Notes under the pieces: model-generated
Told to the model about the DNA's origin: nothing
The model's database searches: none
The model's input: the letters and a program-made list of their open reading frames with translations, nothing else
Program-made: the position numbers and the translations under genes
Part shown: piece by piece, positions 9,680-58,034 of the stretch
Numbering within the stretch: position 1 is the first letter of the stretch
Layout: each line of letters starts with the position of its first letter
IMG/VR virus record: IMGVR_UViG_3300045973_000170
Span: 1 to 62,841 of that record
Source of the DNA: a virus
Lineage: Duplodnaviria; Heunggongvirae; Uroviricota; Caudoviricetes
Length of the DNA stretch: 62,841 nucleotides
Strand: one strand, 5' to 3'

Positions 9680-10926
9680 TTGATGATATGTTCAATGCGT
9701 TCAGCCCAACCCTTGGACTTGCTATAAGCCCAGATAACCCACTTGAATGGTTTCTTGTCTGTCAAGAAATGGCGTTCCATGTGAATCCAATTGTCTGGTC
9801 GTGCCATGAATTCTTTGATTTCGCCTTCCTGAAAGTCTTGACGCCAAATACTAATACCATTTTCATCGTCATAGGAACAGACCATGTACTGATAATCATT
9901 CGACTTGAAGTTGGTCTTGTCAAAGGAAATCAGGTTATAGAAAGACTTACATAGGCTGGCTTCCCAATCTTTCACCTTGGGGTTCGGAGGATACTTGTAG
10001 TCCAGCGTATATTGCTGAACGGCCCGAAGCTTGAAGTCAAAACCAGCGTATTCCTCGTAATCGTGAATGGTGCGCTCTGTACCGATATCGTATCCGGTCA
10101 AATCGAAGCCATTGTCCTCAGTCCGGAACAACTGTCGAATCTTGGCGCGACCTCTGGATTGATGAGCATCTACATTGATACCACGCTTGTGTTCATCGTC
10201 CCACGAAAGCTTACCAGCACGTTCCTGTCGCATCGTGGAATGCCAAATCACCATAATGTGAGGATGAAAGAAATCATAGCCATGGGTAAATGACCGCAGG
10301 GTGAGGTTAATTTCCTCTCCACTGAAGTAGATATCCGGATCGTGTTTGATAGTCTTAGGCCATTCTGTTCTAGCGAAGCAGAAGTGACCAGAGAGGAAGC
10401 GGGAGCGCACTGGCCCTTTGAGATTTTTCCAATCAGGAATGCCGCTAGGACGAATGAAGATTGTTCCATGGGGGTAAAAGCAAACGAAATGTTGCAACCA
10501 TGGGTCTATTGAACGTCCCGCTGGATCATTGAAGGGGTCATAGAGTGGGAGATATCCTGTAATGATGGGTTTGAAGCCTTCCTCTTCCAACTTGGAATGC
10601 ATGTTGATTAGAGTTTCATCCCAGTTCTCTGCAAACCTGTGGTGAGAATCCAATTGTAAAATGTAGGTTTCATCAGTGATCATGTCATTGATGCGCTGTC
10701 TTGCATATGGCAAACCTTTGGCATCCGAATACAAAATGCGGTCAATTTTGAAGCGTGAATCGTCTTTGAATTCATCAAGGTTATCGAACGTATCATCTGG
10801 GTGATACTGATGACAAATACCAAACCGGAGATTCTCAGGATTCTTGGCTTTGGCCAATGCATCCTTAATGGTTGGTACAAGTTCTGGATCACGATAGGCA
10901 GGAAGATGAATGTAGATGGTACTCAT
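9676..10926 (-). CDS. GT60-like polypeptide GlcNAc-transferase (Skp1-hydroxyproline GlcNAc-T family), paralog 2
   Basis: IYIHLPAYRDPEL...KNPENLRFGICHQ...LQLDSHHRF...SGHFCF...YFSGEEINL...WH. Confidence 0.8.
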   Translation of the reverse strand: MSTIYIHLPAYRDPELVPTIKDALAKAKNPENLRFGICHQYHPDDTFDNLDEFKDDSRFKIDRILYSDAKGLPYARQRINDMITDETYILQLDSHHRFAENWDETLINMHSKLEEEGFKPIITGYLPLYDPFNDPAGRSIDPWLQHFVCFYPHGTIFIRPSGIPDWKNLKGPVRSRFLSGHFCFARTEWPKTIKHDPDIYFSGEEINLTLRSFTHGYDFFHPHIMVIWHSTMRQERAGKLSWDDEHKRGINVDAHQSRGRAKIRQLFRTEDNGFDLTGYDIGTERTIHDYEEYAGFDFKLRAVQQYTLDYKYPPNPKVKDWEASLCKSFYNLISFDKTNFKSNDYQYMVCSYDDENGISIWRQDFQEGEIKEFMARPDNWIHMERHFLTDKKPFKWVIWAYSKSKGWAERIEHIIK

Positions 10927-10933
10927 GTTACCC

Positions 10934-12181
10934 TCACTTGGTCACTAATGAACCTTCAATAATTGGGAGCCAACCCTTCTCTTCGGTGGCTGGCCATACG
11001 ATGTATTTAGTCGGCACTGCATCGGAGTAAAAACTACGCCACACATGGGCGAATTTATCATCCACCATTTCAGTCATCAAACGTTTAATCTCATTGGGGC
11101 TTGCGTCTTCTCGGTACAATTCGTTTCCATCAGCATCTTTGAACGCAATAACCCACACGGTATAGCTTCCTTCTGGGAAGGAACCTTTGTACAAGTCGAT
11201 GCAATACTTGCGATAACTGCACAACTTCTCTTCATACGTCGGATCATCGGCATTAGAAATCGGGGGATTTTCCTTGTCAATCGTTTTGCGATGCACCTTG
11301 CGCGTCCTGAATTGAATACCCGCATAACGCTCATAGTCCTCTAACTGTCGTGATCTTCCGATCAAGCGCGGCTGGACTACCCCATCGACACCAAGTAGCT
11401 GTCTATTGTGAGCGTGGGAGTTGTCGTTAAGGACGTTCCAATCAGTATGATCGTCCCAATGCTTCTTCTTATCGGAGCGTGTATACTCATGCCATACGAT
11501 AACCGTATTAGGGTGAAACAAGTCATATCCGGCAAGATAGGCACGGACAGAGAGATTGATTTCTTCCCCGTGGAAGTAGTAGGATGAGTCATATTCGACT
11601 TCTCGACAGAACTTTCCGAAGGTGAAAATGAAGTGACCAGAAACGAATCGAGCAAAAATCGGGTCTGGACGATCCCTCCAATCATCTAATGTATGGGGTG
11701 CAAAATGTACGTTACCATCCGGGGAGAACCTGTCAAAGGTTGTAATCCACGGAGAAGTAACGCGACCTTCTGGATCATGTTTGGGGTTATAGCTTGGGAG
11801 ATAGGCAGTGATCAAGGGCTTTGCGTAGCCCTTGTCCTGTAATCCTTTGAACATCGTGAAGAGTTGTTCATCCCAATCTTGGGTGAAGCGGTGGTGGGAA
11901 TCCAGTTGAAGCATGAATTCCTCATCATTGTATTGAAGGTTGAGCAAATGTCTTGCCCAACATACCCCCCTTGCGTTTTTGTAGTCAATGTCGATGATCT
12001 TTACCTGAGGGTGGTTCTTGAATTCCTCAAGGGTATCCCATTCATCCTCTTGTGCATGTTGCCATGCCACATGAATACGCAAGTTTTCGGGGTACTTTGC
12101 ATGTTTGAAACAATCACGAAGGGTTGGAACCAATTCAGGATCACGGTAGGCCGCGATCTGCACATAGATCAAATTTTTCAC
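10934..12181 (-). CDS. GT60-like polypeptide GlcNAc-transferase, paralog 1
   Basis: IYVQIAAYRDPEL...ARGVCWAR...LQLDSHHRF...SGHFIF...YFHGEEINL...WHEY. Confidence 0.8.
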   Translation of the reverse strand: MKNLIYVQIAAYRDPELVPTLRDCFKHAKYPENLRIHVAWQHAQEDEWDTLEEFKNHPQVKIIDIDYKNARGVCWARHLLNLQYNDEEFMLQLDSHHRFTQDWDEQLFTMFKGLQDKGYAKPLITAYLPSYNPKHDPEGRVTSPWITTFDRFSPDGNVHFAPHTLDDWRDRPDPIFARFVSGHFIFTFGKFCREVEYDSSYYFHGEEINLSVRAYLAGYDLFHPNTVIVWHEYTRSDKKKHWDDHTDWNVLNDNSHAHNRQLLGVDGVVQPRLIGRSRQLEDYERYAGIQFRTRKVHRKTIDKENPPISNADDPTYEEKLCSYRKYCIDLYKGSFPEGSYTVWVIAFKDADGNELYREDASPNEIKRLMTEMVDDKFAHVWRSFYSDAVPTKYIVWPATEEKGWLPIIEGSLVTK

Positions 12182-37884: not shown

Positions 37885-38154
37885 TCAGAGGGGTAATTTG
37901 CCTGACTTCTTCTTCATGAGATTGAGGTTTTCTGCTTCCACCTGAATCAATTGCTTGAGGCGATGGTTGATCAACGATGCCGCCGCTGTGGGTTCAACGT
38001 TGCGCTCTTCACAGTACTCAATGATCATTTCATAGTTGCTGATGCCGCGCTTTGCGGCTTCTGTCTCAATGTAGACAGAGAATTCTTCCGAAGTCTTGAA
38101 CTGACGGGTGATCAAATACTCGACAGTAAGTTCGTTAGGTTCCTTCGGTGACAT
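37885..38154 (-). CDS. gp33: Late-transcription coactivator gp33
   Basis: FS..IE......ISNYEMIIEYCEERNVE......LK..I..EA..LNLM...KLPL. Confidence 0.85.
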   Translation of the reverse strand: MSPKEPNELTVEYLITRQFKTSEEFSVYIETEAAKRGISNYEMIIEYCEERNVEPTAAASLINHRLKQLIQVEAENLNLMKKKSGKLPL

Positions 38155-38575
38155 AGAAGATGTGACCCCCAATTTGTTGGATTGGAAGCATGGTCAAACT
38201 CCATTTTGGTTTGACGGACATATTGTGGAAGAACATGGCGTTCTTAATGGTTGGTAAACGCTTATTCTCGAAAAGAACTTCGTGTGCAATACGCATTGCT
38301 TCCTTGTAGATTTTCATGTCGCGGATCGGGTAAGGCTTGGCTGTCCATGAGAATTGTCCCTTCTGATAGACAACTCCACATACGGTCTTGGGCCACTCCT
38401 TGCTCTTTGCCCGATTCATTGTTACGGTAGCCACTGCCAACTTCCCTTCATAAGATTCATCAGGGGCTTCATAGTAAATGTTCTTGGCGAGGCATTCTTG
38501 TTCATTGATTTTAGGCATGGAGGCTGTTTTTGGCATCAGGCCCATGAGGATAATCGTCGCAAGTTTGAACGTCAT
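38135..38575 (-). CDS. SleB/Hydrolase_2 cell wall hydrolase
   Basis: CLAKNIYYEA..E...GK.AVA.V.MNR...WP.TVCGVVYQ..QFSWT. Confidence 0.88.
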   Translation of the reverse strand: MTFKLATIILMGLMPKTASMPKINEQECLAKNIYYEAPDESYEGKLAVATVTMNRAKSKEWPKTVCGVVYQKGQFSWTAKPYPIRDMKIYKEAMRIAHEVLFENKRLPTIKNAMFFHNMSVKPKWSLTMLPIQQIGGHIFYVTEGT

Positions 38576-38604
38576 GTAGTCCTTGTGTAAGGGTTCATAC
38601 TCTA

Positions 38605-38633
38605 AAGGTAGTCACTGAATCATGGTTTGTCAA
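38605..38633 (-). promoter_or_regulatory. sigma70-type promoter
   Basis: TTGACA-17 nt-TACCTT upstream of the hydrolase. Confidence 0.7.
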
Positions 38634-38639
38634 CCCCTT

Positions 38640-38960
38640 CTAAACGAGAACTTCTTGGCATCCAGTAACAAATAAAGGATGCCAAGAAGGGTTGCCCATT
38701 CTGTTTCCAAGAGGGCGATTCTCAGTCTTTACGCCGCAACGAGTGCGTTCATGAAAGACAGGGCATTATAGTTGTTGCCCGTTAAAGTTTTGCTAGGGCT
38801 TACGGCCCTTCGCCTTTTCGGATAGCGTCTTCAGTCTACTTAGCAACCAATCGAAACCATGACGCCCCCAAAGTACTGCGGCCCTGCTAGTGGAGGCGGG
38901 GGGATTCGAACCCCCGTCTTGTCTGCTTTTCCCTTCAGCATTGTACTATCATCCTGCACT
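38640..38960 (-). ncRNA. ssrA: tmRNA, circularly permuted (two-piece) gene
   Basis: Acceptor piece first (T-arm GGGGG-TTCGAAT-CCCCC, CGCCTCC-A ending 38891), then a 21-nt intervening segment, then the coding piece starting GGGGGCG at 38869. 7-bp acceptor stem with G3-U70; tag ORF 38779-38729 GNNYNALSFMNALVAA*. Outer ends approximate. Confidence 0.92.
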
Positions 38961-38962
38961 TC

Positions 38963-38970
38963 TATTTATA
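38963..38970 (-). promoter_or_regulatory. Late promoter TATAAATA immediately upstream of the tmRNA
   Basis: Exact consensus overlapping the HNH stop codon. Confidence 0.7.
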
Positions 38971-39364
38971 GCTCTCGCCTCAAGTCTTTGATCGCGTGAC
39001 AGTTGTAACAACGAATCTCAAGAAAAATATCACCTGATTGTGCCGCCAGATAATAGTGCTTCCAGTTGACATGCTTTCCCTTTCGATGATACTTTCCATC
39101 CCCCTCTGGGTGGTCAATGGTAAATACTCGTCTATCAATTGTTCCACAGTCAACACATCTATCGCCCAAAATTTGGAATGTTAGATTTCTCCACTTTACT
39201 CTGTCTTGCTGTCTTTTTCTTAGGCAAGTATTACAAGAAGTGTTAGAACTAATACCTTCCAAAAAACACCCACACCGAAGACAATGACCACTTTCCTTTC
39301 TCTTTTGGGTTCTTTTTCTGTGCCTTATCTTATCTTGTTCTTTCCTCTTTTCGTATGGGGTCAT
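38966..39364 (-). CDS. Zn-finger/HNH-type endonuclease-like protein
   Basis: CxxC pairs; CVDCG...TIDH...IRCYNCHAIK; locally AT-rich. Confidence 0.65.
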   Translation of the reverse strand: MTPYEKRKEQDKIRHRKRTQKRKESGHCLRCGCFLEGISSNTSCNTCLRKRQQDRVKWRNLTFQILGDRCVDCGTIDRRVFTIDHPEGDGKYHRKGKHVNWKHYYLAAQSGDIFLEIRCYNCHAIKDLRREL

Positions 39365-39618
39365 GCATTCGTTACCTTCTTTAGCTTCGCCTTCTTGGGT
39401 GGATCATACTTCTTTGCTGGTGAAGCCACATTCAACAACATGGCAATGTCTTTCAATGCTTGCTCACGGGAAACATCATGTAGGAACATCATTTCATAGA
39501 CTGCTTCTATACCCACGGTTCCAAACTCAAAATCCATTGACTTTACTCTCGTCCCACCATCTATTAACACCAACCTATGGGGTGCGAGGATTGCGTTTAC
39601 TTCGTGAACTGGCAACAT
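39361..39618 (-). CDS. Hypothetical protein
   Basis: 85 aa, overlaps its neighbour by ATGA. Confidence 0.6.
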   Translation of the reverse strand: MLPVHEVNAILAPHRLVLIDGGTRVKSMDFEFGTVGIEAVYEMMFLHDVSREQALKDIAMLLNVASPAKKYDPPKKAKLKKVTNA

Positions 39619-39625
39619 ACAACCT

Positions 39626-40390
39626 CTAATGTGTAAGTAAATCCTCGTAGTTCATGCGAGCTATAATGTACTCCTTACACAAGGCACTTCTGACGATATC
39701 TTCTACGCCAAATTCAACAATGCGAAATGAGTCCATATGCTCCACGATTGAAACAAACTTCTTGAGTCCTGACATATCGTTACGCTTTGATAGATCGGTC
39801 TGTCGGAAGTCTCCACAGAAGATCATCTTCGTGTTGTTGCCAGCACGGGTCATAACAGAGTTGAGTTCCATGTCTGTCATATTCTGTGCTTCATCAACGA
39901 TAACGATACAGTCATCCAATGTCAAGCCCCTAACGTGAGAAGTGATCATGAATTCGACACACTTTTGCTCCGTTAGACGGCCCCATGCTTGATCTACAAA
40001 CCGTGGAAACAGCGAACTACAAATATCCTGATAGGGGATCATGTAAACTTCACTCTTTTCCTTTTCGTCACCCGGAAGGTGACCAATATCCCGTGAGGGA
40101 ACGGCAGAACGAACAATGACTACCTTCTTGTATTTTCCGTCTTTCTCAAGAACTTCCTTCAAAGCGTTGTAGAGAGCAATGTATGTTTTTCCTGATCCTG
40201 CAACACCATGAAGAAGTAAAGCGGAGTATCCTTTTCTATAGTAGTTGAAAAAAATGTGTTGGTTATCTGTAAGCGGAACAACATCTTTGAGGTCTGCTAT
40301 CTTGACTTTGCACTTAGCTTCTTTGTGAACGGTGGGAGTTGGTGTCGGAGTGATGAATGTCTGAGAAGTGTTGTGCTTCTTGCGCGGCAT
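39626..40390 (-). CDS. phoH: PhoH family ATPase
   Basis: GVAGSGKT, VRSAVP, GHLPG..EK, RGLTLD, VDEAQN, GD.RQTDL. Confidence 0.95.
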   Translation of the reverse strand: MPRKKHNTSQTFITPTPTPTVHKEAKCKVKIADLKDVVPLTDNQHIFFNYYRKGYSALLLHGVAGSGKTYIALYNALKEVLEKDGKYKKVVIVRSAVPSRDIGHLPGDEKEKSEVYMIPYQDICSSLFPRFVDQAWGRLTEQKCVEFMITSHVRGLTLDDCIVIVDEAQNMTDMELNSVMTRAGNNTKMIFCGDFRQTDLSKRNDMSGLKKFVSIVEHMDSFRIVEFGVEDIVRSALCKEYIIARMNYEDLLTH

Positions 40391-43416: not shown

Positions 43417-43666
43417 ACAAACGTGTCCAACTAACGTCAAATACATAGTACAACACGATCTTCAAAATGATATCATATGCCGAAAGTGACAAGCTGATAT
43501 CTACATCATGCGTGAACAAAAAGGCCAAAAGAAACGTCATCAGAACAGAGAAAATTTGAAAGATCGTTGCTTTGGCAAGCAAGATCAACTGTGCTTTTCT
43601 CTGTCTTCGAATCCTCGACCTAAACAGTCGAAGGAGAGCGTGACCAGATGATGTCTTTAATGTCAT
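43403..43666 (-). CDS. Small membrane protein, DUF2061-like
   Basis: LAKATIFQI...KIVLYYVFD..W. Confidence 0.55.
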   Translation of the reverse strand: MTLKTSSGHALLRLFRSRIRRQRKAQLILLAKATIFQIFSVLMTFLLAFLFTHDVDISLSLSAYDIILKIVLYYVFDVSWTRLFNHF

Positions 43667-44654
43667 GACGTTCCCTCAAGTAGGTTTCCACAAACTTCAC
43701 AAAGTTCTCAGAGTTGGAAAAGTAATTCAACCCACCCGCATAGACGCCAAACTTGTCCACTTCCTCTAGCACATCAACCTTATTTATGTAGATTCTGGTG
43801 ACTCCGTTGACCTTACATGCGGGAATAATCTCATCTAAATCCAACCAATCAGTCTTACGTTTACGACCTGTGGTTGCTCCAACTTCATTGCCAGCGGTCT
43901 GAATCTTCAAAAGTGCCGGATCATCAGACTTACACCATGACTCATCGTTACCCACATAGGTACGATACGCCTTCATGATTCCAAAGACCCGATCAATAGC
44001 TTGGGGTGGAATACCATTCAAGCATACGGCCCCTGTTGTACAATGAGAAGAAGTTACAAACGGATACCGCCCAAAGTTGATATCAAGCTGGTAACCCTGT
44101 GCGCCTTCACAGAGAATCTTGGGGTTGGCAATCCTCTCACCCCACTCGTTTATGAAGTAGCTCTTGGGGTTGGTATGAAACATGTCGTACACATTCCCAA
44201 CCCGAAACGGTAATTCGACTAATTCCTCAATGCGAATTCCATCCCGGTTGGCTTTGCTTGCATAAGCTGGCCCAATTCCTTTTCGGGTGGTACCAATTCG
44301 GGTATCTTTTCCGTCTTCATCAAGATGAGTTTGAGTAATTACATGAGTCCGATAATCAACATAGAGTAAATCTTTAGGGTTAAACCCGAAGGATTCTAAC
44401 ATGTTGGTTTCGTCTATCAACTCATCAATATTAACCACACATTCAGGGCCAATGATGCTTACCTTCCCATGAAGAACCCCACACGGAACTTGGTGTGTGA
44501 CGATCTTGACTCCCTTCACAAAGATGGTATGACCCGCATTCCCGCCACCATTATAACGCAACACCCCGTCATAGTTGGGAGCCAGATGGCTGGTAATCTT
44601 TCCCTTTCCACAATCGCCAGCCTGAAGGTCAACAATCACATCGGCTTGTACCAT
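43620..44654 (-). CDS. purA: Adenylosuccinate synthetase (short form)
   Basis: DLQAGDCGKGK, RYNGGGNAGHT, HQVPCG, IGTTRKGIGPAY, EGAQG, YPFVTSS, GATTGRKR. Confidence 0.92.
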   Translation of the reverse strand: MVQADVIVDLQAGDCGKGKITSHLAPNYDGVLRYNGGGNAGHTIFVKGVKIVTHQVPCGVLHGKVSIIGPECVVNIDELIDETNMLESFGFNPKDLLYVDYRTHVITQTHLDEDGKDTRIGTTRKGIGPAYASKANRDGIRIEELVELPFRVGNVYDMFHTNPKSYFINEWGERIANPKILCEGAQGYQLDINFGRYPFVTSSHCTTGAVCLNGIPPQAIDRVFGIMKAYRTYVGNDESWCKSDDPALLKIQTAGNEVGATTGRKRKTDWLDLDEIIPACKVNGVTRIYINKVDVLEEVDKFGVYAGGLNYFSNSENFVKFVETYLRERHDIKDIIWSRSPSTV

Positions 44655-44684
44655 ACGCAAATCTCCTGATTCAAGGTATGACGT

Positions 44685-49820: not shown

Positions 49821-50002
49821 TGGCACAGAAAGCGTTAAGCCAATTTCAAGTGGTGCATGGAGATTCACTGGCTCATGTGTTTATCTTTGCCTTGGATACG
49901 GACGGTCATCTGTGGCGTGGATATCATCAGTATCCAGATGGGCCAGATGTAAAATGGGAACGTATTCAAAATCCCCCTCACAACAAGGACACTGACCTAT
50001 GA
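49820..50002 (+). CDS. Hypothetical protein
   Basis: TGATG overlap; FALDTDGHLW. Confidence 0.55.
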   Translation: MAQKALSQFQVVHGDSLAHVFIFALDTDGHLWRGYHQYPDGPDVKWERIQNPPHNKDTDL

Positions 50003-50193
50003 AAAAGGCTGTCTTGAAGGAACTGTGGCGTAATCTTGATCCACCCCTGAAGGTGATGAGTCTGATGGTTACTGTCTTGTCTCTCCTATTGATTTGGATG
50101 TTGACCATCATCACCAAGGGACTCTTCATTCTTGTCATTCTTGCCTTCTGGGGAATCATCAAGCTCTTGAATCGATGGAGTGAAAGCCCATGA
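49999..50193 (+). CDS. Small two-TM membrane protein
   Basis: Hydrophobic helices. Confidence 0.6.
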   Translation: MKKAVLKELWRNLDPPLKVMSLMVTVLSLLLIWMLTIITKGLFILVILAFWGIIKLLNRWSESP

Positions 50194-50414
50194 AACGCCC
50201 CACTAAGGCAGAAATAGAAAAGGCACATCGTATTCTGGAACGGGAAGAACAAGCTGACAAGCCCCGCAGGGACGCTCAAATTGAGGCCGATGCTCGTTGG
50301 ATGGCCGATGAAGCCACTGCCTCCTATGAATACAATTCATACAAGAATCGCCCTGCTGGTTGCACCTGTGTTTCCTGTACCGACTATCGAAAGAAATATG
50401 GAGTGACCCCATGA
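50190..50414 (+). CDS. Hypothetical protein
   Basis: ATGA overlaps; CTCVSC. Confidence 0.55.
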   Translation: MKRPTKAEIEKAHRILEREEQADKPRRDAQIEADARWMADEATASYEYNSYKNRPAGCTCVSCTDYRKKYGVTP

Positions 50415-50869
50415 AAGAAGTAGAAAACCACATCTGGTTCAACGAGGAAGTCATTCAGAACAGCGATGGCATCTGGAAGGAGGGGTATTACTTTTCTGAC
50501 GAAGCGGAACAGTTGAATGGCCCCTACGCTTCTCAAAAGGAAGCCAAGGCTGATCTGGCACGGTATTGCGACACGTTCCTCAAGTCCATGTCTCCCTATG
50601 AGAAAGAAGTCCAACTGGCCTACCAAGCGGTCATGGATGGCTTTGGTTGTCCTGCCCCTGATGATGAATATTGCGGAGGTTGCGCCAACCTCATGAGAAA
50701 ATTCGAAGAAGCGGTTCGCTCTCATGAACGTTCCCTCGTCTACGTTCCCACGGAACTTCGTGCCGCCCAACAGGTCATCGCCTTCTACGCCTGTGTCATA
50801 AAATCCGGAGAACGCTGGTCGCCAGCCTGTGAAACCGCCATGCAGGACGCACTGGCCAGCCTCCGATGA
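50411..50869 (+). CDS. Hypothetical protein
   Basis: ATGA overlaps; start trimmed. Confidence 0.55.
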   Translation: MKEVENHIWFNEEVIQNSDGIWKEGYYFSDEAEQLNGPYASQKEAKADLARYCDTFLKSMSPYEKEVQLAYQAVMDGFGCPAPDDEYCGGCANLMRKFEEAVRSHERSLVYVPTELRAAQQVIAFYACVIKSGERWSPACETAMQDALASLR

Positions 50870-51060
50870 GACACACTACATGGACGAACGGGAAGCGCAC
50901 GGTCAAGGGGTGTTGGAATTACTATTGGGCTTCCGACTGTTTTGTGGTGACGCTCTTTCAGCGTGACCGGACAACCGGGGCCAGCGAAAAAACATTTCGC
51001 GTCTATGGCGATACCCCAGAATGGGGCAATTGGAAAATGCAAAAGGAAAACGCCCCATGA
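50866..51060 (+). CDS. Hypothetical protein
   Basis: ATGA overlaps. Confidence 0.55.
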   Translation: MRHTTWTNGKRTVKGCWNYYWASDCFVVTLFQRDRTTGASEKTFRVYGDTPEWGNWKMQKENAP

Positions 51061-51413
51061 AAGTCCTCTCCATCCGTCAACCATGGGCTTGGCTCATCGT
51101 TCAGGGGATCAAGGACATTGAGAATAGAACATGGAGAACGAAATTTCGGGGGCAGTTTCTTGTCCACGCCAGCCTGAAGTTCGACAAGGAAGGATATAGA
51201 GCCATCCAGAGAAAACATTTCGTCTACATGCCACAACCCCATGAGTTTGACCGGGGATGCGTTGTGGGCTATTCCATGCTGGTGGATTGCGTAGAGGAAC
51301 ACAAGAGTCCATGGATGGGGGACGCCTTTGGGTTCGTTCTCACGGAGTCTCACCCCTTACTCACCCCCATCCCTCTCAAGGGGAAGTTGGGATTCTTCGA
51401 TTACGTTGGATGA
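51057..51413 (+). CDS. ASCH domain protein
   Basis: MKVLSIRQPWAWLIV.G.KDIENR.W....RG..LVHAS...KGKLGFF. Confidence 0.9.
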   Translation: MKVLSIRQPWAWLIVQGIKDIENRTWRTKFRGQFLVHASLKFDKEGYRAIQRKHFVYMPQPHEFDRGCVVGYSMLVDCVEEHKSPWMGDAFGFVLTESHPLLTPIPLKGKLGFFDYVG

Positions 51414-51573
51414 CCTTCAGCAAACTCCAAGCATCTACCAGTACCGTGTGATCCTCACGGTGAAAGATGGGGAACCCTGTTCGCATCCGGGTTGCTTGAG
51501 CCATAGGAGCCACCCCTGCGAAGGCTGTGGAAGAATTGGGGGAATAGGAAAAGGAATAATGCGAAACGGTTAA
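51328..51573 (+). CDS. Hypothetical Cys/His-rich protein (true start probably about 51406)
   Basis: DGEPCSHPGCLSHRSHPCEGCGRIGG. Confidence 0.4.
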   Translation: MGSFSRSLTPYSPPSLSRGSWDSSITLDDLQQTPSIYQYRVILTVKDGEPCSHPGCLSHRSHPCEGCGRIGGIGKGIMRNG

Positions 51574-51694
51574 TTTTGGTGTGCATAGCATGTGGTTTGG
51601 TTGAGAATTCCCCTGAGAGAATTTTTTCGGGGGGATTTTTTTCAAAGTGTCAACCTCCTTTCATGTGCCATCGCCCCCATGTGCCATGTGTATG

Positions 51695-52860
51695 TCAGGG
51701 TTTTCCCTAGACTCATATAGGGGTTTTCCTTAGGGGATTCGCAACGTCGGCGGGTCAGGGAAACCCTTACAGCGTGGGTAAGGCGAAGCCCCACATCACT
51801 GTGGGGCTTGGCCCTACGTTGTTCGCCCTACACCGTTGCGGTGGTTGCCCCTGAGAGAACACCCGACGCGATGAGTGAGGGAATGTCGGTAGCCGTTGAC
51901 ACTTCCAACGTGTCACCGTTGAGCTTCGCCACCGTCACGCCGTCGAGCCTGAACTGCCGGAACTTCGCGCTAGGGAGCATCGCCTCAACTTCCTGCCGCG
52001 CAATCGTTTCCGGCTTGCTATTGACCGTGCGGTAGTTGGCCTTTACGATTACGTCTTTACGCATCGTCAGGCCGGAAATGTGCAGGTTGCCCGTTTCCAG
52101 ATGCACCTTTACGCCTTTGATCGCTGTCGGGGCGTAGGCATCAGCACCAGTATACGCGCTGTTATTGCCCACGCCCTTGTCAAGCGACTCCGTGCGGCTG
52201 GCGCGTATCTTCTCAGCGGCGGCAAGCTGAAGACCCGTCAGCGTGGGCATGAGTACCGCCAGCGTTTCGAGGTCGCGGCGGTAGAGGTTTTCCGTGGACG
52301 CGCCCAGAATGAGCAGATGCCGCGCAACTTCCACCGTCAGGCGCGGCCCGGACGGTTGGGCAACGTAGACGAAAGACGCGAACTTCGCCCCCGCCATCGT
52401 TGCGAGTGATTCCAGCAGAGCGACAAAAGCCGACATGGTAGACCCCCAGAGGGTTTAGGTTGACCCCTGAATATCGCCAAATGCACAAACTTCAGCAGTC
52501 AGGGAAACCCCATGAGATTACTCAGGGAAACCTTTACAGCCATGTAGGGCAAACCCCTAAGGGTTTCGCAACACCGGGGGTGTCAGGGAAAACCTTACAC
52601 GAAGTGTAAGGCTTTCCCTGACACGGCGGGGTTGACTTTCCCCTAAGGGAATCCCTGATGCTTCGTTGTTGGGAAACCCTTACAGCCATGTAAGGGTTTT
52701 CCTTAGGACAATCCCCTACAACGGCGTAGGGTTTTCCCCTACAGCGTGGGCAAGAGAAACCCCTACAGCCCTGTCAGATAATGCCTGACAGGGCTGTAGG
52801 GGTTGTGCTGTAGGTAAATGCTGAATAGCAAATCAGGGAATGCCTGATAGACACCCGGAT
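51695..52860. repeat. Clusters of AGGG-N3/4-CCCT palindromes and long inverted repeats flanking ORF 51828..52436
   Basis: For example 52579-52623 (21-bp arms, 1 mismatch, GAA loop) and 52758-52804 (perfect 20-bp arms); at least 10 motif copies in 52499-52850. Confidence 0.85.
51828..52436 (-). CDS. Hypothetical protein (GC-rich early gene)
   Basis: 202 aa ORF; hairpin aagccccac-atcact-gtggggctt downstream. Confidence 0.7.
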   Translation of the reverse strand: MSAFVALLESLATMAGAKFASFVYVAQPSGPRLTVEVARHLLILGASTENLYRRDLETLAVLMPTLTGLQLAAAEKIRASRTESLDKGVGNNSAYTGADAYAPTAIKGVKVHLETGNLHISGLTMRKDVIVKANYRTVNSKPETIARQEVEAMLPSAKFRQFRLDGVTVAKLNGDTLEVSTATDIPSLIASGVLSGATTATV

Positions 52861-52908
52861 ACGACAAAGGGGTGACGGTGCCAGATTCAGCACCGCCACC
52901 CCTTCGCC

Positions 52909-53952
52909 TTACTTCGTCAGGGCCAGTAGGCCGCTGAAAACTTGGAGCTTCGCGTCAGCCATCGGGCCGTAAATCAGCCCTTCGGCCTTCGCCTCTAACG
53001 TCTTCGGACGCCAGAGGGCTACCGAGTGGTCGGCGGCTTCCGTTACTGCCGTGTACGCCTCCCACGCGCTACCGTTGCCCGTGTGACCGAGGCCACCCGT
53101 CCACAACGCCGTTAGCAGTTCGCGCCGATCCTCGACGCGCTTGATAATCCCGGCGTTGCTTCGGCCTTCCGTCTTCGCTTCCGGCATTGGCGCGATGACA
53201 TCCAGCACGGAACGCCGAAAAGTCGCCTCGTCAATGATGAGGGCGCGCAGGGCCAGAATATCGCGCCCTACTGCCTCACGTTGGGCGACCACGCCGCCCC
53301 AAAGCTTCTCGACGCCATCCAGCACCCGCAACCGTGCATTGCGCGTGTGCTTCGTGAGAAACTTTGACGTTGCCGAGTTTACGGCCATGCGCTCCGTGTT
53401 CGCGCAGACTACCGTTACGTCGGTGTCGTAGAACCCGATGGAATCTTTGCCCGACAGGGACGAAACGGCCAGCCCATAGGCTACCATCTTGTCCCCGAAA
53501 GCTTCGCGGCAAACATCGCCAAACTTCTCGATATTCCACCGCATCAGCATGAAAACCTTTTCCCCGTCGCGGAGAACGCCAGCGGTTTCGATAGTCGCCA
53601 GCCCTTCCGCAATAAATGGGTCTAGTGACCGCATCACTTCGGAGTGCTGGACAACCTCAAACGACGGTGACGCCGTGCCGATTTCGGCGTTGGTGTCGGT
53701 GCGAACGATTGCCGCCGACCTTGTGCTTTCCTTCTGGAACGTGTCGCCGTCTTCCGTGTACGCCGTGAACGTCTGGGGCCGCAGTTCGGCCTCGAAATCG
53801 CCACGGCACGCCTTCATTGCCGCCGCGCTGTCCTTCGGCCTGTCGGCTTCCTGAAAGTAGGTGCCGAGATTGTGCCACGCCAGCGAAACCTCACGCCGTA
53901 CCACTTGGAAAAACGAGAACGTCCCGTCTTTCTCTTCCAGTTCGTGCGCCAT
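52909..53952 (-). CDS. DUF932 (DUF945/TIGR03299-like) family protein
   Basis: MAHEL...AWHNLG, VRTDTN..IG......VVQH, ETAGVLRDG.KVF, VVCANT, KHT, GSAWEAY.AVTE. Confidence 0.8.
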   Translation of the reverse strand: MAHELEEKDGTFSFFQVVRREVSLAWHNLGTYFQEADRPKDSAAAMKACRGDFEAELRPQTFTAYTEDGDTFQKESTRSAAIVRTDTNAEIGTASPSFEVVQHSEVMRSLDPFIAEGLATIETAGVLRDGEKVFMLMRWNIEKFGDVCREAFGDKMVAYGLAVSSLSGKDSIGFYDTDVTVVCANTERMAVNSATSKFLTKHTRNARLRVLDGVEKLWGGVVAQREAVGRDILALRALIIDEATFRRSVLDVIAPMPEAKTEGRSNAGIIKRVEDRRELLTALWTGGLGHTGNGSAWEAYTAVTEAADHSVALWRPKTLEAKAEGLIYGPMADAKLQVFSGLLALTK

Positions 53953-54309
53953 CTTTTCCCCCTTGCCAGTTGGCGGGTATGACTCGCGCTAGGTGCGCGG
54001 GTACCTCTCGCCAGATTGTCAAACAGCCCTACACTCGAAACGTAGCCGGGGGCGCATCATTTCCGCAAGTGTTGGCCGAAAGTTTCTCGCGGATATTCCC
54101 CTTAGTTGGGCGTCAGTCGTTGTCCTAAGGGATTCTCTCACGGGGTTGTAGGGGTTTCCCTGACCCGGACGGTGTTGCGTTTCCCTTAGGGCATTCCCTC
54201 ACTCACCTGTCATCTATTCCCTGACCCCGCCGCACAATACACGACTAGGGCATTCTCTCACGGGGTTGTAAGAGTTTGCCCTAGTCGCATGGCTCACGGG
54301 GGAGTGAGG

Positions 54310-54537
54310 CTATCTCGCGGGTCTGTCCTTATTCCCGTTTAGCTCACGGCGTCGGATTGAACCCACGTTGTACCCGTCGCCGTAGAGTAATGCTGAATCG
54401 TCTTTGTAATGCCCCTCGTTGTAGGGCAATCCGTTGCGGCCATCGTCCCACCCGTCACGCCATGACTGTGCGGGGTGCATTCCTACCGTGGCCCTGTGCG
54501 TGACAGTTGGTATGATTCTTCCCATACATTCGTGCAT
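54310..54537 (-). CDS. Hypothetical protein
   Basis: 75 aa; GWDDG..G/YGDGY..G repeat. Confidence 0.55.
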   Translation of the reverse strand: MHECMGRIIPTVTHRATVGMHPAQSWRDGWDDGRNGLPYNEGHYKDDSALLYGDGYNVGSIRRRELNGNKDRPAR

Positions 54538-54643
54538 TGTATCCCCTGAGAGGCAACTAATGATATTTCCTGGGATTGAATCAACCTACCATGTCGCAAC
54601 GTTTTCCGCAACGTTTACATTTACGTTTGCGTTGACGTTTGTG

Positions 54644-55369
54644 TTAAATGTTCGTCCGGGTTCCTGTATACTTGTGGCCCGTGCTACCGTGGGCGAGGAT
54701 TGCCACGTTACGCTGGCTGGCCCCGTCGCATACTCCGCATTCCACGCACGTTGTCAAATGTCCACGTTCAGCACTCGCGGGACAATGGATAGCGTTGGCG
54801 GGAATAGGCTCCAACACGGGCAACACGCGGAACGTTCCGAAACCCTTTGCGTTTGCCTTGGCTACGTCTTCCGCTGTCTCTGTCGATGCTTGACAGAAAT
54901 AGGAGAGGTTGGCAAATCTCTTGCTACGCCATTGGTGAGTGTAGCCCGTTGTCATCTTGGCATAGGCTGAAATAGCCCTGAGGATATGTACCGGGGCGGC
55001 GGCGGGGTCGCCGTAGGTGCCGAGTCTCACGGGGCGATTGGCGAACATGGCATAGTCCGAAATAACCGGATAGTTACCACGCTTCCACGCCTTATAGACG
55101 TTGTTCGGGCCAGTGTCAATACGGACGTAGCAAGTACGCAACCCCGTGAGAGGGTTGCGACGGTGGATGCACCCACCACAGATGCAAGCATCCGTGCCGT
55201 TTTTTACGGCGTTCATCGGGTTTTCGTCGGCGTTCAAGAAATACGTCTGGATCATTCCACCCGTCTTGGCGTTGGAACTAGCCGTCTTGAAACCGATGGC
55301 GATAACTACAATCGCCTTGCCGTTCAAGAGTGACGGGCCTTCATAGAGTACTACGCCGTTGGAAGTCAT
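54644..55369 (-). CDS. Cys-rich GP88-like (possibly Fe-S/radical-SAM-like) phage protein
   Basis: LYEGPSLLNG, NAKTG.MIQTY, CICGGC.HR...CYV, RLGTYGDP, TGYTHQW, CPAS...TCVECGVC; start trimmed to 55369. Confidence 0.65.
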   Translation of the reverse strand: MTSNGVVLYEGPSLLNGKAIVVIAIGFKTASSNAKTGGMIQTYFLNADENPMNAVKNGTDACICGGCIHRRNPLTGLRTCYVRIDTGPNNVYKAWKRGNYPVISDYAMFANRPVRLGTYGDPAAAPVHILRAISAYAKMTTGYTHQWRSKRFANLSYFCQASTETAEDVAKANAKGFGTFRVLPVLEPIPANAIHCPASAERGHLTTCVECGVCDGASQRNVAILAHGSTGHKYTGTRTNI

Positions 55370-55424
55370 GGAGTAAAGGTAAACCCCGACCAACCGTGGC
55401 GGTAGTCGGGGTTTCCCTGAATCT

Positions 55425-55802
55425 TTAGAACGTGATGGTGCCACCAAACCGCTTGACTGTCGCAATGGCGTCGGACAAATCTGTGTGGTTTTCTTTCTGT
55501 GCCACGCCCACCGGAGCCGACTTGCGAACAACGCAAGCCATCACCTTGGAAGGACGGCCACGGCGCAAGCCGCTTGCCAGCTTCTCAGGGGAACGGCGGG
55601 GAATATCCCCACGCTTGTAGAAATTGCTGGTGCCGTAGTACACCGAGCGAATTGACAGCGGGGATATTCCCCACGTTGGCGAAACTTCCTCCATGGCCGC
55701 ACCCGACTTCCACCCACGGGAAATCAGGGTGTCAATTTCCCTACGGAGTTTTGCTACCAGTTCGAACGTCCAACGGCGATTGCGACGGGCAACGGTCATC
55801 AT
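55425..55802 (-). CDS. Hypothetical protein, possible HTH
   Basis: RRWT.E.V..L...G......V...WGIS..SI..VY. Confidence 0.6.
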   Translation of the reverse strand: MMTVARRNRRWTFELVAKLRREIDTLISRGWKSGAAMEEVSPTWGISPLSIRSVYYGTSNFYKRGDIPRRSPEKLASGLRRGRPSKVMACVVRKSAPVGVAQKENHTDLSDAIATVKRFGGTITF

Positions 55803-55871
55803 GGTAGTAATCCGGATGGATTGTTTGACGGGAGCCGTTCGTGAATCGTGAGCTAATGGTAAATTCCCGGC

Positions 55872-56063
55872 TCACCGTAGGCAAGTCGGGGATTCCCCTA
55901 ACTTTTCATCGCACCCCCTACATATGTAGGTAAAAGGTTTGTCCAGAAAATTAGCCAACATGGTCTGGTAAATTGTTCCGATGGATTTTCCGCAGATACG
56001 ACAAAGTCCCCAGACATTATTTCCTGAAGACGAGGTGCGAACGATGGCGGTATTGATTCTCAT
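55872..56063 (-). CDS. Small zinc-finger protein
   Basis: CRIC...ICRGC; has its own promoter cassette. Confidence 0.5.
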   Translation of the reverse strand: MRINTAIVRTSSSGNNVWGLCRICGKSIGTIYQTMLANFLDKPFTYICRGCDEKLGESPTCLR

Positions 56064-56116
56064 GAGGTAAAGGTAATCCCCGGCTCACCGTGAGGCAAGT
56101 CGGGGATTCCCTGAAT

Positions 56117-56275
56117 CTACTTCACGCGCTTCCACGCTCCGGACGGGGTGACGAGGTAGTTCCTGTCGCTGGCCTTGACCACCAGCCCCGGCTCATGCGA
56201 CTCCTTGAAGTCACGCGCCGTGTTGATCCGCATCCACTGACGCTTCTTCTTGGCATCCTTCGTGGTCTTGCCCAT
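56117..56275 (-). CDS. Small basic protein (52 aa; not in the track)
   Basis: MGKTTKDAKKKRQWMRINTARDFKESHEPGLVVKASDRNYLVTPSGAWKRVK. Confidence 0.55.
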   Translation of the reverse strand: MGKTTKDAKKKRQWMRINTARDFKESHEPGLVVKASDRNYLVTPSGAWKRVK

Positions 56276-56358
56276 GGAATTTCACCCCTGTCCAACGTTT
56301 GGGTTTATGTTTCGGTTGACGTTCAGTGCAACGATTGGGGGGCCGTTGGCACTATTCC

Positions 56359-56700
56359 TCAGACGGCACCAATCAGCAGTGCGGCCTTTGCCAGTGCGTA
56401 CTCAGTGTTCGTGATGAACTCCGTGTCCGGAACTTCGAACGTCTTGGCCTCTGCGAGGTTGGCCGCGATCACCGTCACGCACTCCTTCAGCGATTCGATG
56501 GCCTTCTCCTTGGCCTTGGCCTGTTCCGCGTCGATGAAGGGGCCAAGCTCTTCCATCTTGGAACCGCTGGCCATCTTCTCAATGCACTCGTTCATGCACT
56601 TGGTACGGGCATTCTTGTAGTCGGCCATGATGACGGTGACAACGAGTGCCTGAATCGTGTTGCTGGCCTTCAGTTCGCGCATTGATGCCATGGTGTCCAC
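56359..56700 (-). CDS. Hypothetical helical protein
   Basis: 113 aa ORF downstream of a cassette promoter. Confidence 0.65.
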   Translation of the reverse strand: MDTMASMRELKASNTIQALVVTVIMADYKNARTKCMNECIEKMASGSKMEELGPFIDAEQAKAKEKAIESLKECVTVIAANLAEAKTFEVPDTEFITNTEYALAKAALLIGAV

Positions 56701-56927
56701 TCCCTGTGAGACTGTGGTGGTATTGGATCGTGAATGTAATCTATCTCAGGGGGTTAACCCTGTCAGTCAGGATTTCCCTGAACCTTCCATCGTCTTCTTG
56801 CAACAGGGACAATCCATGGATATTGGCGAAAGTACGGTGCCGTCAACAAACGAGACACCCACCACAATGCTGACCATGCAATGAACGCACATGTACACAT
56901 AGTGTGCCGAACTCATGTGCGTTGACA

Positions 56928-57191
56928 TTATCGGGCCTCACCGATACAATAATCTGCCAGCATTCGCAGATCGTTGTAGACTTCGATGAGCTTCTTCTGA
57001 CGCTCCACCATCTGATCCAGAGCCTTCTGGTACGCCTCAGGGGAGAGCGTCTGGTAGTCACGACCATGCACGATTCGTGCCTGAAGGTCGGCGGCATGTT
57101 CCACAGCCTTGGCCGCTTCATAATACTGGCGAGCCAAATCGGTGGCGTCAGCACCATTCAGGTTGATGCCGGGAAACTGAAGATCATCCAT
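56928..57191 (-). CDS. Hypothetical protein
   Basis: INLNG....L..QY..A...HGRDYQ. Confidence 0.65.
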   Translation of the reverse strand: MDDLQFPGINLNGADATDLARQYYEAAKAVEHAADLQARIVHGRDYQTLSPEAYQKALDQMVERQKKLIEVYNDLRMLADYCIGEAR

Positions 57192-57193
57192 GG

Positions 57194-57478
57194 TCAGCCT
57201 TCCATGTTGATGAGATTGTTGGTGCCTTCGAAAAGCATCTGGAACTTGGTGTCAAGCGACTTGTGCTGATCCACGCTGAACGTCTGATCCTCGTCAGCTT
57301 CCAACAGGTTGACGATGGAATCCAGCACCGCCCATGGTGTCACAATGGTGTACAGTGAATCTCCCCACGACACCCAATCGAAATACATGAGGAAATCATC
57401 ACGCTTCTGCAAATCGGAATACCCCACCGCTTTGAGAACTTCGGAGAGGTTGTAGAATGTGACGGTCTTGGCCTTCAT
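57194..57478 (-). CDS. Hypothetical protein
   Basis: 94 aa; downstream of a cassette promoter. Confidence 0.65.
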   Translation of the reverse strand: MKAKTVTFYNLSEVLKAVGYSDLQKRDDFLMYFDWVSWGDSLYTIVTPWAVLDSIVNLLEADEDQTFSVDQHKSLDTKFQMLFEGTNNLINMEG

Positions 57479-57547
57479 TGAAGCCCCCTGAGAGTATGCC
57501 TAAACATATCTCAGGGGGCTTCTCCCGTCAATCAGGGAATCCCTGAA

Positions 57548-57982
57548 CTACAGGAAGCGGCTGATGCTCTTGAAAGTGCTGGCGTTGACGTAATCCTCAT
57601 CCGTCATCTTCAGCATACGGAGCGCGTTCTCAATCTCCGTAATCTGGCTGTCGGGGTTGCCGAAGCGAGGATACTCGAAATCCGGCTTGGGCTGTTCCGG
57701 CACCGCTGACTTCTTGAGGAAGAACGTCAGTTCCACCTTGATCTGACCACGGGGAACCCCGTAGCAATCGGAGTGGGTGGCAACTTCCGAAGCGTCAGCG
57801 TTGTCGGAAATCAGGGTGGTAACCTGCTTGCGCCACTCCACCATCGCCTTCTCATGCGCCTTCTGCTTCTTGGGGATATCCTTGAATTCCTTGACCTTCG
57901 CCTCAAGCGAGGCAATGATCTTCGCCACCGGAACCCGAATGTTGATGCTCGCCACGGTCACGCTCCATGAGTGAGTGTACAC
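57548..57982 (-). CDS. Hypothetical protein (likely GTG start at about 57955)
   Basis: Coherent ORF between two cassettes. Confidence 0.65.
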   Translation of the reverse strand: MYTHSWSVTVASINIRVPVAKIIASLEAKVKEFKDIPKKQKAHEKAMVEWRKQVTTLISDNADASEVATHSDCYGVPRGQIKVELTFFLKKSAVPEQPKPDFEYPRFGNPDSQITEIENALRMLKMTDEDYVNASTFKSISRFL

Positions 57983-58034
57983 CTAATGATAATCATGTCT
58001 CATGGGGCTGTACAGTCGGGGAATCCCTGAAATG

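Follow-up and report, generated by a model that had tools for sequence, protein, structure and literature searches.

Evidence for a circularly permuted tmRNA gene behind a late promoter motif in an uncultured T4-like phage

The uncultured freshwater T4-like myovirus described here carries a genuine, complete circularly permuted ssrA gene, whose product would very probably serve as a phage-timed late rescue RNA using host factors. The gene lies on the minus strand of the window, that is, the whole stretch of 62,841 nucleotides that was analysed, which covers the opening 62.8 kb of an IMG/VR virus record of 126.8 kb, whose completeness CheckV puts at about 75%. A pond metagenome, the only run containing the entire stretch, is probably its source. 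An earlier reading made from the letters alone (the sequence-only reading) had proposed a circularly permuted, two-piece tmRNA in a phage. This proposal is upheld by ARAGORN in tmRNA mode, by the Rfam model of permuted tmRNAs and by the phage genes around the locus. ARAGORN called a permuted tmRNA at 38638-38980 on the minus strand, with the tag GNNYNALSFMNALVAA (gene positions 55-91 for the 3' tRNA domain, 112-138 for the 5' domain and 202-252 for the tag). Rfam RF04321 (tmRNA_permuted) matched at 97.3 bits over model positions 1-213 of 213, with an E value of 1.1e-17 across the whole window. The curated gathering threshold of this model is 47 bits, and the score is far above chance. Both ARAGORN and direct reading confirmed the permuted order, in which the T arm and the 3' acceptor strand come first and the 5' acceptor strand and the tag frame follow. 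Against cultured phages, megablast with a 6-kb segment around the tmRNA gave no match, and a distant blastn search with the tmRNA gene returned short T-arm matches only.

Phage two-piece tmRNAs are already known as a kind; the window copy is unusually diverged and has a late promoter. The sequence-only reading had called phage tmRNAs uncommon, which does not fit the published and database counts. Buchholz et al. 2022 described a two-piece ssrA in Methylophilales phage Melnitz; of the 133 unique tmRNA structures that they counted in 402 phage genomes, 53 were two-piece forms (PMC9004378). The 2025 tmRNA database holds 79 unique phage tmRNAs (PMC11915505). RF04321 also scored 113 bits in Melnitz, 90.6 bits in Pelagibacter phage HTVC008M and 88.2 bits in Caulobacter phage CcrRogue, and a looser single DNA pattern was found in 31 IMG/VR contigs.

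Architecture of the two-piece tmRNA

The acceptor piece (38891-38956, minus strand, as for all parts below) comprises the 5' strands of the inter-piece helices, the T arm, the 3' acceptor strand and the discriminator A38891. By direct reading, the T arm GGGGG-TTCGAAT-CCCCC occupies 38915-38899 and the 3' acceptor strand CGCCTCC occupies 38898-38892. After the discriminator comes CTA, so the gene does not encode CCA. The intervening segment of 21 nt (38890-38870), the removal of which is expected, is too short to hold a gene and is the part least conserved between the window and its closest relative, contig L135. The 5' part of the coding piece (38821-38869) then provides the 5' acceptor strand GGGGGCG (38869-38863), the D-loop analogue TCATGGTTTCGA (38862-38851) and the inter-piece return strands. 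The acceptor strands pair 7/7 and include G3-U70, the alanine identity pair. On the acceptor stem, the lack of an encoded CCA and the length of the spacer, direct reading of the minus strand agrees with what had been described from the letters.

The two pieces are held together by an inner helix (38927-38919 with 38850-38842) formed by AGCAGACAA and TTGGTTGCT. These are the strands that the sequence-only reading had paired, and they do pair, not perfectly but at 8 of 9 positions, with a single internal A.G where the Rfam consensus also has an unpaired position. An outer inter-piece helix (38950-38946 with 38825-38821) is drawn tentatively. The same holds for the pseudoknot-1 region (38792-38820), a hairpin GC..GGGC-CGTAA-GCCC..GC whose loop CG could pair with CG at 38820-38819, giving a second stem of just 2 bp. 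A more distant relative, L162, keeps this hairpin on an altered stem, CTGC-CGTAA-GCAG. Both the outer helix and the pseudoknot-1 drawing have just 15-35% of their cells paired in a MAFFT alignment of 26 related sequences, with no family-wide support. Energy-based folding of the precursor, like co-folding of its two pieces, recovered the acceptor stem, the T arm and some of the inter-piece helix; the full model was unconvincing.

The tag frame GNNYNALSFMNALVAA (38729-38779) starts at the resume codon GGC, has 16 codons and stops at TAA. It ends LVAA, a conventional hydrophobic-Ala-Ala end, and the peptides of the alternative frames are short or atypical. Translation would resume at a Gly codon, where Ala is usual. 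A Gly resume codon is unusual and has precedent, for example in Bacillus subtilis. After the tag stop, a 3' hairpin (38694-38716) with the stem GCCC/GGGC carries the conserved loop CTTGGAAACAGAA, which belongs to the alpha_tmRNA consensus and occurs in 1 of 27 typical beta and 1 of 79 cyanobacterial copies. The conserved loop, noted at the window, L135, L162, L151 and L005, reads CTTGG(A/G)AACAGAA, or CTTGTAAACAGAA in Melnitz, and stands on five different stems (window/L135, L162, L151, Melnitz).

The phage locus and its transcription signals

T4-like myovirus genes in the window include gp5, gp6, gp25, gp48-type baseplate and tail genes, gp32, gp59, dCMP deaminase, PhoH and a gp33-like gene. 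The best cultured relatives of its gp6 are those of HTVC008M (35% identical), Melnitz (34%) and cyanomyoviruses (30-33%). Directly upstream of the tmRNA, on the same strand, lies an HNH endonuclease of 132 aa (38966-39364; phrog_2255, E 1.3e-7). Downstream follow an endolysin of 146 aa (38135-38575, minus strand) and a gp33-like late transcription co-activator (37885-38172, minus strand), then dCMP deaminase, gp59 and gp32. A PhoH-like protein (39626-40390, minus strand) marks the upstream boundary, and the stretch from PhoH to the gp33-like gene spans 37885-40390. The block PhoH - tmRNA - endolysin - gp33-like - gp59 - gp32 was found in at least 10 other viral contigs of IMG/VR, a recurrence that is new to us; the loci noted for the block or parts of it are L138, L146, L150, L153, L155, L156, L159, L160, L005 and L006. 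The gp33-like gene also follows the tmRNA in HTVC008M and in Melnitz, where gp59 comes next. Across a wide group of aquatic T4-like phages, the tmRNA seems to have a settled place in the PhoH-to-gp32 region. The GC content around the tmRNA is that of the phage; elsewhere in the window, at 50000-58000, it rises from about 0.46 to 0.52-0.59. Beyond the window, 38 tRNA genes lie at 85273-104757 of the record, all on the minus strand. None of the 38 encodes CCA, and many have CT right after the discriminator, as the tmRNA acceptor piece has.

A T4-type late promoter motif, TATAAATA, is found at 38963-38970 on the minus strand, where it overlaps the stop codon of the HNH gene. The late promoter assumed in the sequence-only reading is supported by the enrichment of this motif, with 7 sites in the window against 0.84 expected and 7 reached in none of 100 shuffles, and by its positions near late genes. 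Four of the six other sites are located 24-62 nt upstream of late gene starts (baseplate or glycosyltransferase), the fifth 81 nt upstream of an unannotated ORF, and the sixth inside the end of a 1829-aa ORF. No -35 element is recognisable before the tmRNA site, and the motif is identical in L135. By analogy with T4 late promoters, the transcript is expected to start at about 38957-38955, a few nucleotides ahead of the first helix (G38950), so the acceptor piece would need no 5' trimming. Read-through from the genes upstream on this strand might also give early expression of the tmRNA. Several relatives that were checked have sigma-70-type promoters (TTGACA-17-TATAAT-like), and the beta-type relatives show at this spot either sigma-70-type promoters or none recognisable. 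As a separate observation, insertion of a homing-type HNH gene may have replaced an ancestral tmRNA promoter in the lineage of the window and L135.

At the other end, a terminator-like hairpin followed by a T-rich tail (38642-38689, minus strand) has a 13-bp stem (38689-38677/38663-38651) and a folding energy of -25.1 kcal/mol (z -5.5; none of 200 shuffles as good). It is kept in L135 with one compensatory pair and is the probable end of the primary transcript. A simple terminator scan missed it because its loop is longer than 8 nt; the same scan listed the T arm on the opposite strand, an artefact. A 154-nt assembled contig from a sediment metatranscriptome matches 38715-38863, and a 231-nt assembled contig from a soil library of uncertain type matches 38679-38882. 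As assembled contigs, these RNA-library matches show neither transcription, ends nor processing. For the 2-kb stretch around the tmRNA, no RNA-library match was listed. A very high depth at 38890-38920 was discarded as a tmRNA signal, as it comes from 31-nt contigs of generic T-arm sequence. Small matching shares in freshwater and sediment runs were not taken to indicate a habitat.

Relatives, selection and subtype

L135, the closest relative, is a 13.2-kb IMG/VR contig also present as metagenome contig L161. Its gene order around the tmRNA is that of the window, with proteins 79-92% identical except for a 90-aa HNH at the same place (49%). The L135 tmRNA (10725-10948, minus strand) scores 79 bits with RF04321, and ARAGORN gives no call. 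The earlier warning that tRNA finders may miss or miscall such genes was therefore apt for L135 and misplaced for the window copy, which ARAGORN finds. The acceptor stem is GGGGTGG/CCACTCC in L135 and GGGGGCG/CGCCTCC in the window: two pairs are changed on both sides, with G3-U70 kept. The T-stem closing pair goes from G-C in the window to A-T in L135. In the tag frame, the first 12 codons show no DNA difference, and a 3-nt insertion and several substitutions follow; frame and stop are kept, giving the tag GNNYNALSFMNAMQMVS, which ends MQMVS. Relative to the window tag, the soil contig has three synonymous changes and a Val codon replaced by Gln, so that its tag ends ...NALQAA. L162, partial and more distant, has a 27-residue tag ending ALAAA, and its CGTAA hairpin and 3' loop stand on different stems. 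The tag ends of close relatives vary (LVAA in the window, MQMVS in L135, LQAA in the soil contig), and ribosome release rather than proteolysis might be selected. MQMVS is not a typical xAA degradation signal, so proteolytic targeting may not be the selected function.

Pairing reaches 100% of cells in the T and acceptor stems of the 26 related phage and bacterial sequences, where compensatory changes are seen, and 77% in their inner inter-piece helix. The acceptor G-U pair is invariant (26/26). Covariation amounts to 0.316 against 0.110 in shuffles, with none of 500 shuffles as high, and does not exceed 0.115 once the pairing partners have been shifted by 1-3 columns. These comparisons indicate that the tmRNA structure and the tag frame are under selection. 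In searches for further copies, patterns specific to close relatives matched only L135 (the same as L161) and the partial L162, and a strict DNA pattern matched nothing in IMG/VR.

The subtype is less clear-cut. The sequence-only reading had expected the permuted form to give a host-range clue, and the two-piece models do not bear this out. The window tmRNA scores 21.9 bits with alpha_tmRNA (RF01849, cut-off 50), 51.9 bits with beta_tmRNA (RF01850, E 5e-15, cut-off 84), which is the best-scoring subtype model, and 46.4 bits with cyano_tmRNA (RF01851, cut-off 70), in each case below the cut-off. According to the authors of the tmRNA database, these older models can help to subtype permuted genes (PMC11915505). 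In a tree built from the tRNA-like domain and the following 70 nt, the window and L135 form a pair (100/100) on a long branch (length 1.04), inside a mostly viral beta-like grade and outside the cyanobacterial clade (100/100 support). Judged by its parts, the window tmRNA is a mosaic or intermediate, with a beta/cyano-like tRNA domain and an alpha-like 3' hairpin loop. As the form is mosaic or intermediate and passes no subtype cut-off, we doubt that it can serve as a host-range clue. Host assignment from the tmRNA was rejected on these missed cut-offs and on the long branch among phage copies.

Comparison with the known types locates the divergence. Melnitz and HTVC008M are, like the window phage, T4-like aquatic myoviruses with a permuted tmRNA at the same genome place, directly upstream of the gp33-like co-activator, and Melnitz shares the 3' hairpin loop (CTTG.AAACAGAA). 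However, both pass alpha_tmRNA (106.7 and 83.8 bits), have the alpha-type T loop GGCAGTA where the window has TTCGAAT, and encode CCA, which the window tmRNA does not. Their tags are ANDNYVPVDYALAA and ANFNEYALAA, respectively. Melnitz further differs by its promoter (TTGACA-17-TATAAA, against TATAAATA without a -35 element), by a spacer of more than 100 nt against 21 nt, and by a glutamine riboswitch just downstream (RF01739, 52.8 bits). No such riboswitch was found in the window, whether at the gathering threshold or at E values up to 10, nor at 16 related loci.

The beta type (RF01850) comprises genes of Rhodocyclales and related bacteria and of uncultured T4-like phage contigs. RF01850-positive genes are found in at least 11 IMG/VR contigs (106-185 bits), and most of those checked sit in the PhoH-to-gp32 block. 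Their tRNA-like domain and D-loop analogue are very similar to those of the window, whereas the part after the window resume codon does not align. In addition, the near-invariant G-C next to the T arm is A-T in the window gene, where TGGTTTCGA is followed by GAT rather than GAC, the discriminator is not followed by CC, and the resume codon is one for Gly. Among the beta-type phage copies checked, several have sigma-70-type promoters, and most are without the CTTGGAAACAGAA loop. Cyanobacterial RF01851 genes share with the window a TTCGA T loop, a short spacer and the lack of an encoded CCA, but the window copy stays below their 70-bit cut-off and outside their 100/100 clade, and psbA was not found in the 126.8-kb record (about 75% complete). 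The one-piece phage tmRNAs of the mycobacteriophage Bxz1 group and of Bacillus phage G resemble the window in having ssrA beside large tRNA sets, but they have the standard gene order (PMC4131195) and the window gene is permuted.

One conserved phage locus harbours alpha-type genes in Melnitz and HTVC008M, beta-type genes in the typed IMG/VR contigs and, in the window, a gene that no subtype model passes. That the three forms descend from one vertically inherited phage gene, and not from repeated captures, is a speculative idea to which we give little credence; if true, the permuted lineages of bacteria, now taken as independent, would be linked via phages, which would carry the permuted form or might even have been its origin. 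Regulation has been rewired between lineages: sigma-70-type promoters occur in several relatives, Melnitz adds a riboswitch, and the window has a late promoter.

Proposed function and competing explanations

The following scheme draws on established tmRNA knowledge and on the two-piece tmRNA reportedly described in Caulobacter by Keiler and colleagues in 2000. Late in infection, the phage late machinery, for which a gp33-like co-activator is encoded two genes downstream of the tmRNA, would start a precursor of about 315 nt a few nucleotides downstream of TATAAATA. Host RNase P would cut 5' of G38869 to give the coding piece. The spacer would be trimmed to A38891 and the host CCA-adding enzyme would add CCA, as for all 38 phage tRNAs. 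The two pieces would remain base-paired, host AlaRS would charge the acceptor piece, and host SmpB and EF-Tu would bring the charged RNA to ribosomes stalled on broken messages. Translation would then resume at GGC, A-GNNYNALSFMNALVAA would be appended and the ribosome freed. The predicted tag on rescued products is AGNNYNALSFMNALVAA, and the tagged products would probably go to host proteases. The dependence on host enzymes is deduced from the 38 tRNAs without encoded CCA and from the 126.8-kb record, about 75% complete, in which neither SmpB nor a CCA-adding enzyme was found. Together with the tRNA island, such an RNA might benefit the phage by keeping the ribosome pool free in the late protein burst, as the host RNA supply fails.

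The tag invites another reading, in which the gene yields a modified rescue RNA or a decoy that, unlike a plain spare part of the host system, competes with host tmRNA for SmpB and stalled ribosomes and alters product fate (no degradation after rescue, or another tag) or titrates SmpB. Tag ends that differ among very close relatives, next to the first 12 codons being DNA-identical in L135, would suit this reading, as would the tRNA-like-domain-only tmRNA of phage DS6A, reported to resemble a tmRNA inhibitor (PMC4131195); the Melnitz authors also propose selective tagging (PMC9004378). However, the tag frame of the window copy is complete and ends in the conventional way, and its full tRNA-like domain is under structural selection. 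We consider a decoy or altered rescue RNA unlikely. Even less probable is a decaying relic without function, which would explain the subtype scores under their cut-offs, the branch of length 1.04 to the window and L135, and the failure of ARAGORN on L135. Decay is hard to reconcile with compensatory changes, seen in the acceptor and T stems and at the G-C to A-T pair beside the T arm, with a tag frame and stop kept through an indel, and with a promoter, terminator-like hairpin and 3' hairpin loop that are all conserved.

We also weighed an origin in host DNA, as a temperate-phage attachment-site fragment or an assembly chimera. Although tmRNA genes often serve as integration sites and prophages can contain fragments of them (PMC9004378; PMC4383910), here both pieces and the tag are complete; phage genes flank them, the late promoter motif of the phage itself precedes them, and the GC content around them matches the phage. 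The same layout is present in the independent contig L135, and the same locus in many other viral contigs, which makes such an origin barely credible.

If the preferred reading as a functional rescue RNA is true, the phage, with its 38 tRNAs, would bring most of the RNA side of translation and still need host SmpB, AlaRS, RNase P and CCA-adding enzyme. The working principles of tmRNA, as known, are unchanged by this gene. For annotation, a diverged phage tmRNA can be missed by the subtype models and, as in the sister contig L135, by ARAGORN, and the permuted subtype is here no host label.

Some minor observations were made in passing. Two Stenotrophomonas assemblies contain a permuted tmRNA (L114, 7176-7518, and L117, 1330-1678), with the tags ANNDDYHQVLKAA and ANESVYDQPQERELLVA. 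Gammaproteobacteria of the Stenotrophomonas group normally have a one-piece tmRNA, and these permuted genes may be prophage-borne second copies. In addition, three MAGs labelled Chitinophaga pinensis (L016), Sphingobacterium thalpophilum (L065) and Bordetella parapertussis (L128) carry the acceptor-stem signature of picocyanobacterial permuted tmRNAs, which suggests mislabelled or contaminated bins. Finally, a 346-aa protein of the window (43620-44660, minus strand) matches phrog_1211, '2-aminooxy adenylosuccinate synthetase' (PurA/PurZ-like), with an E value of 6.6e-68; if this protein is PurZ, the phage might have 2-aminoadenine in its DNA.
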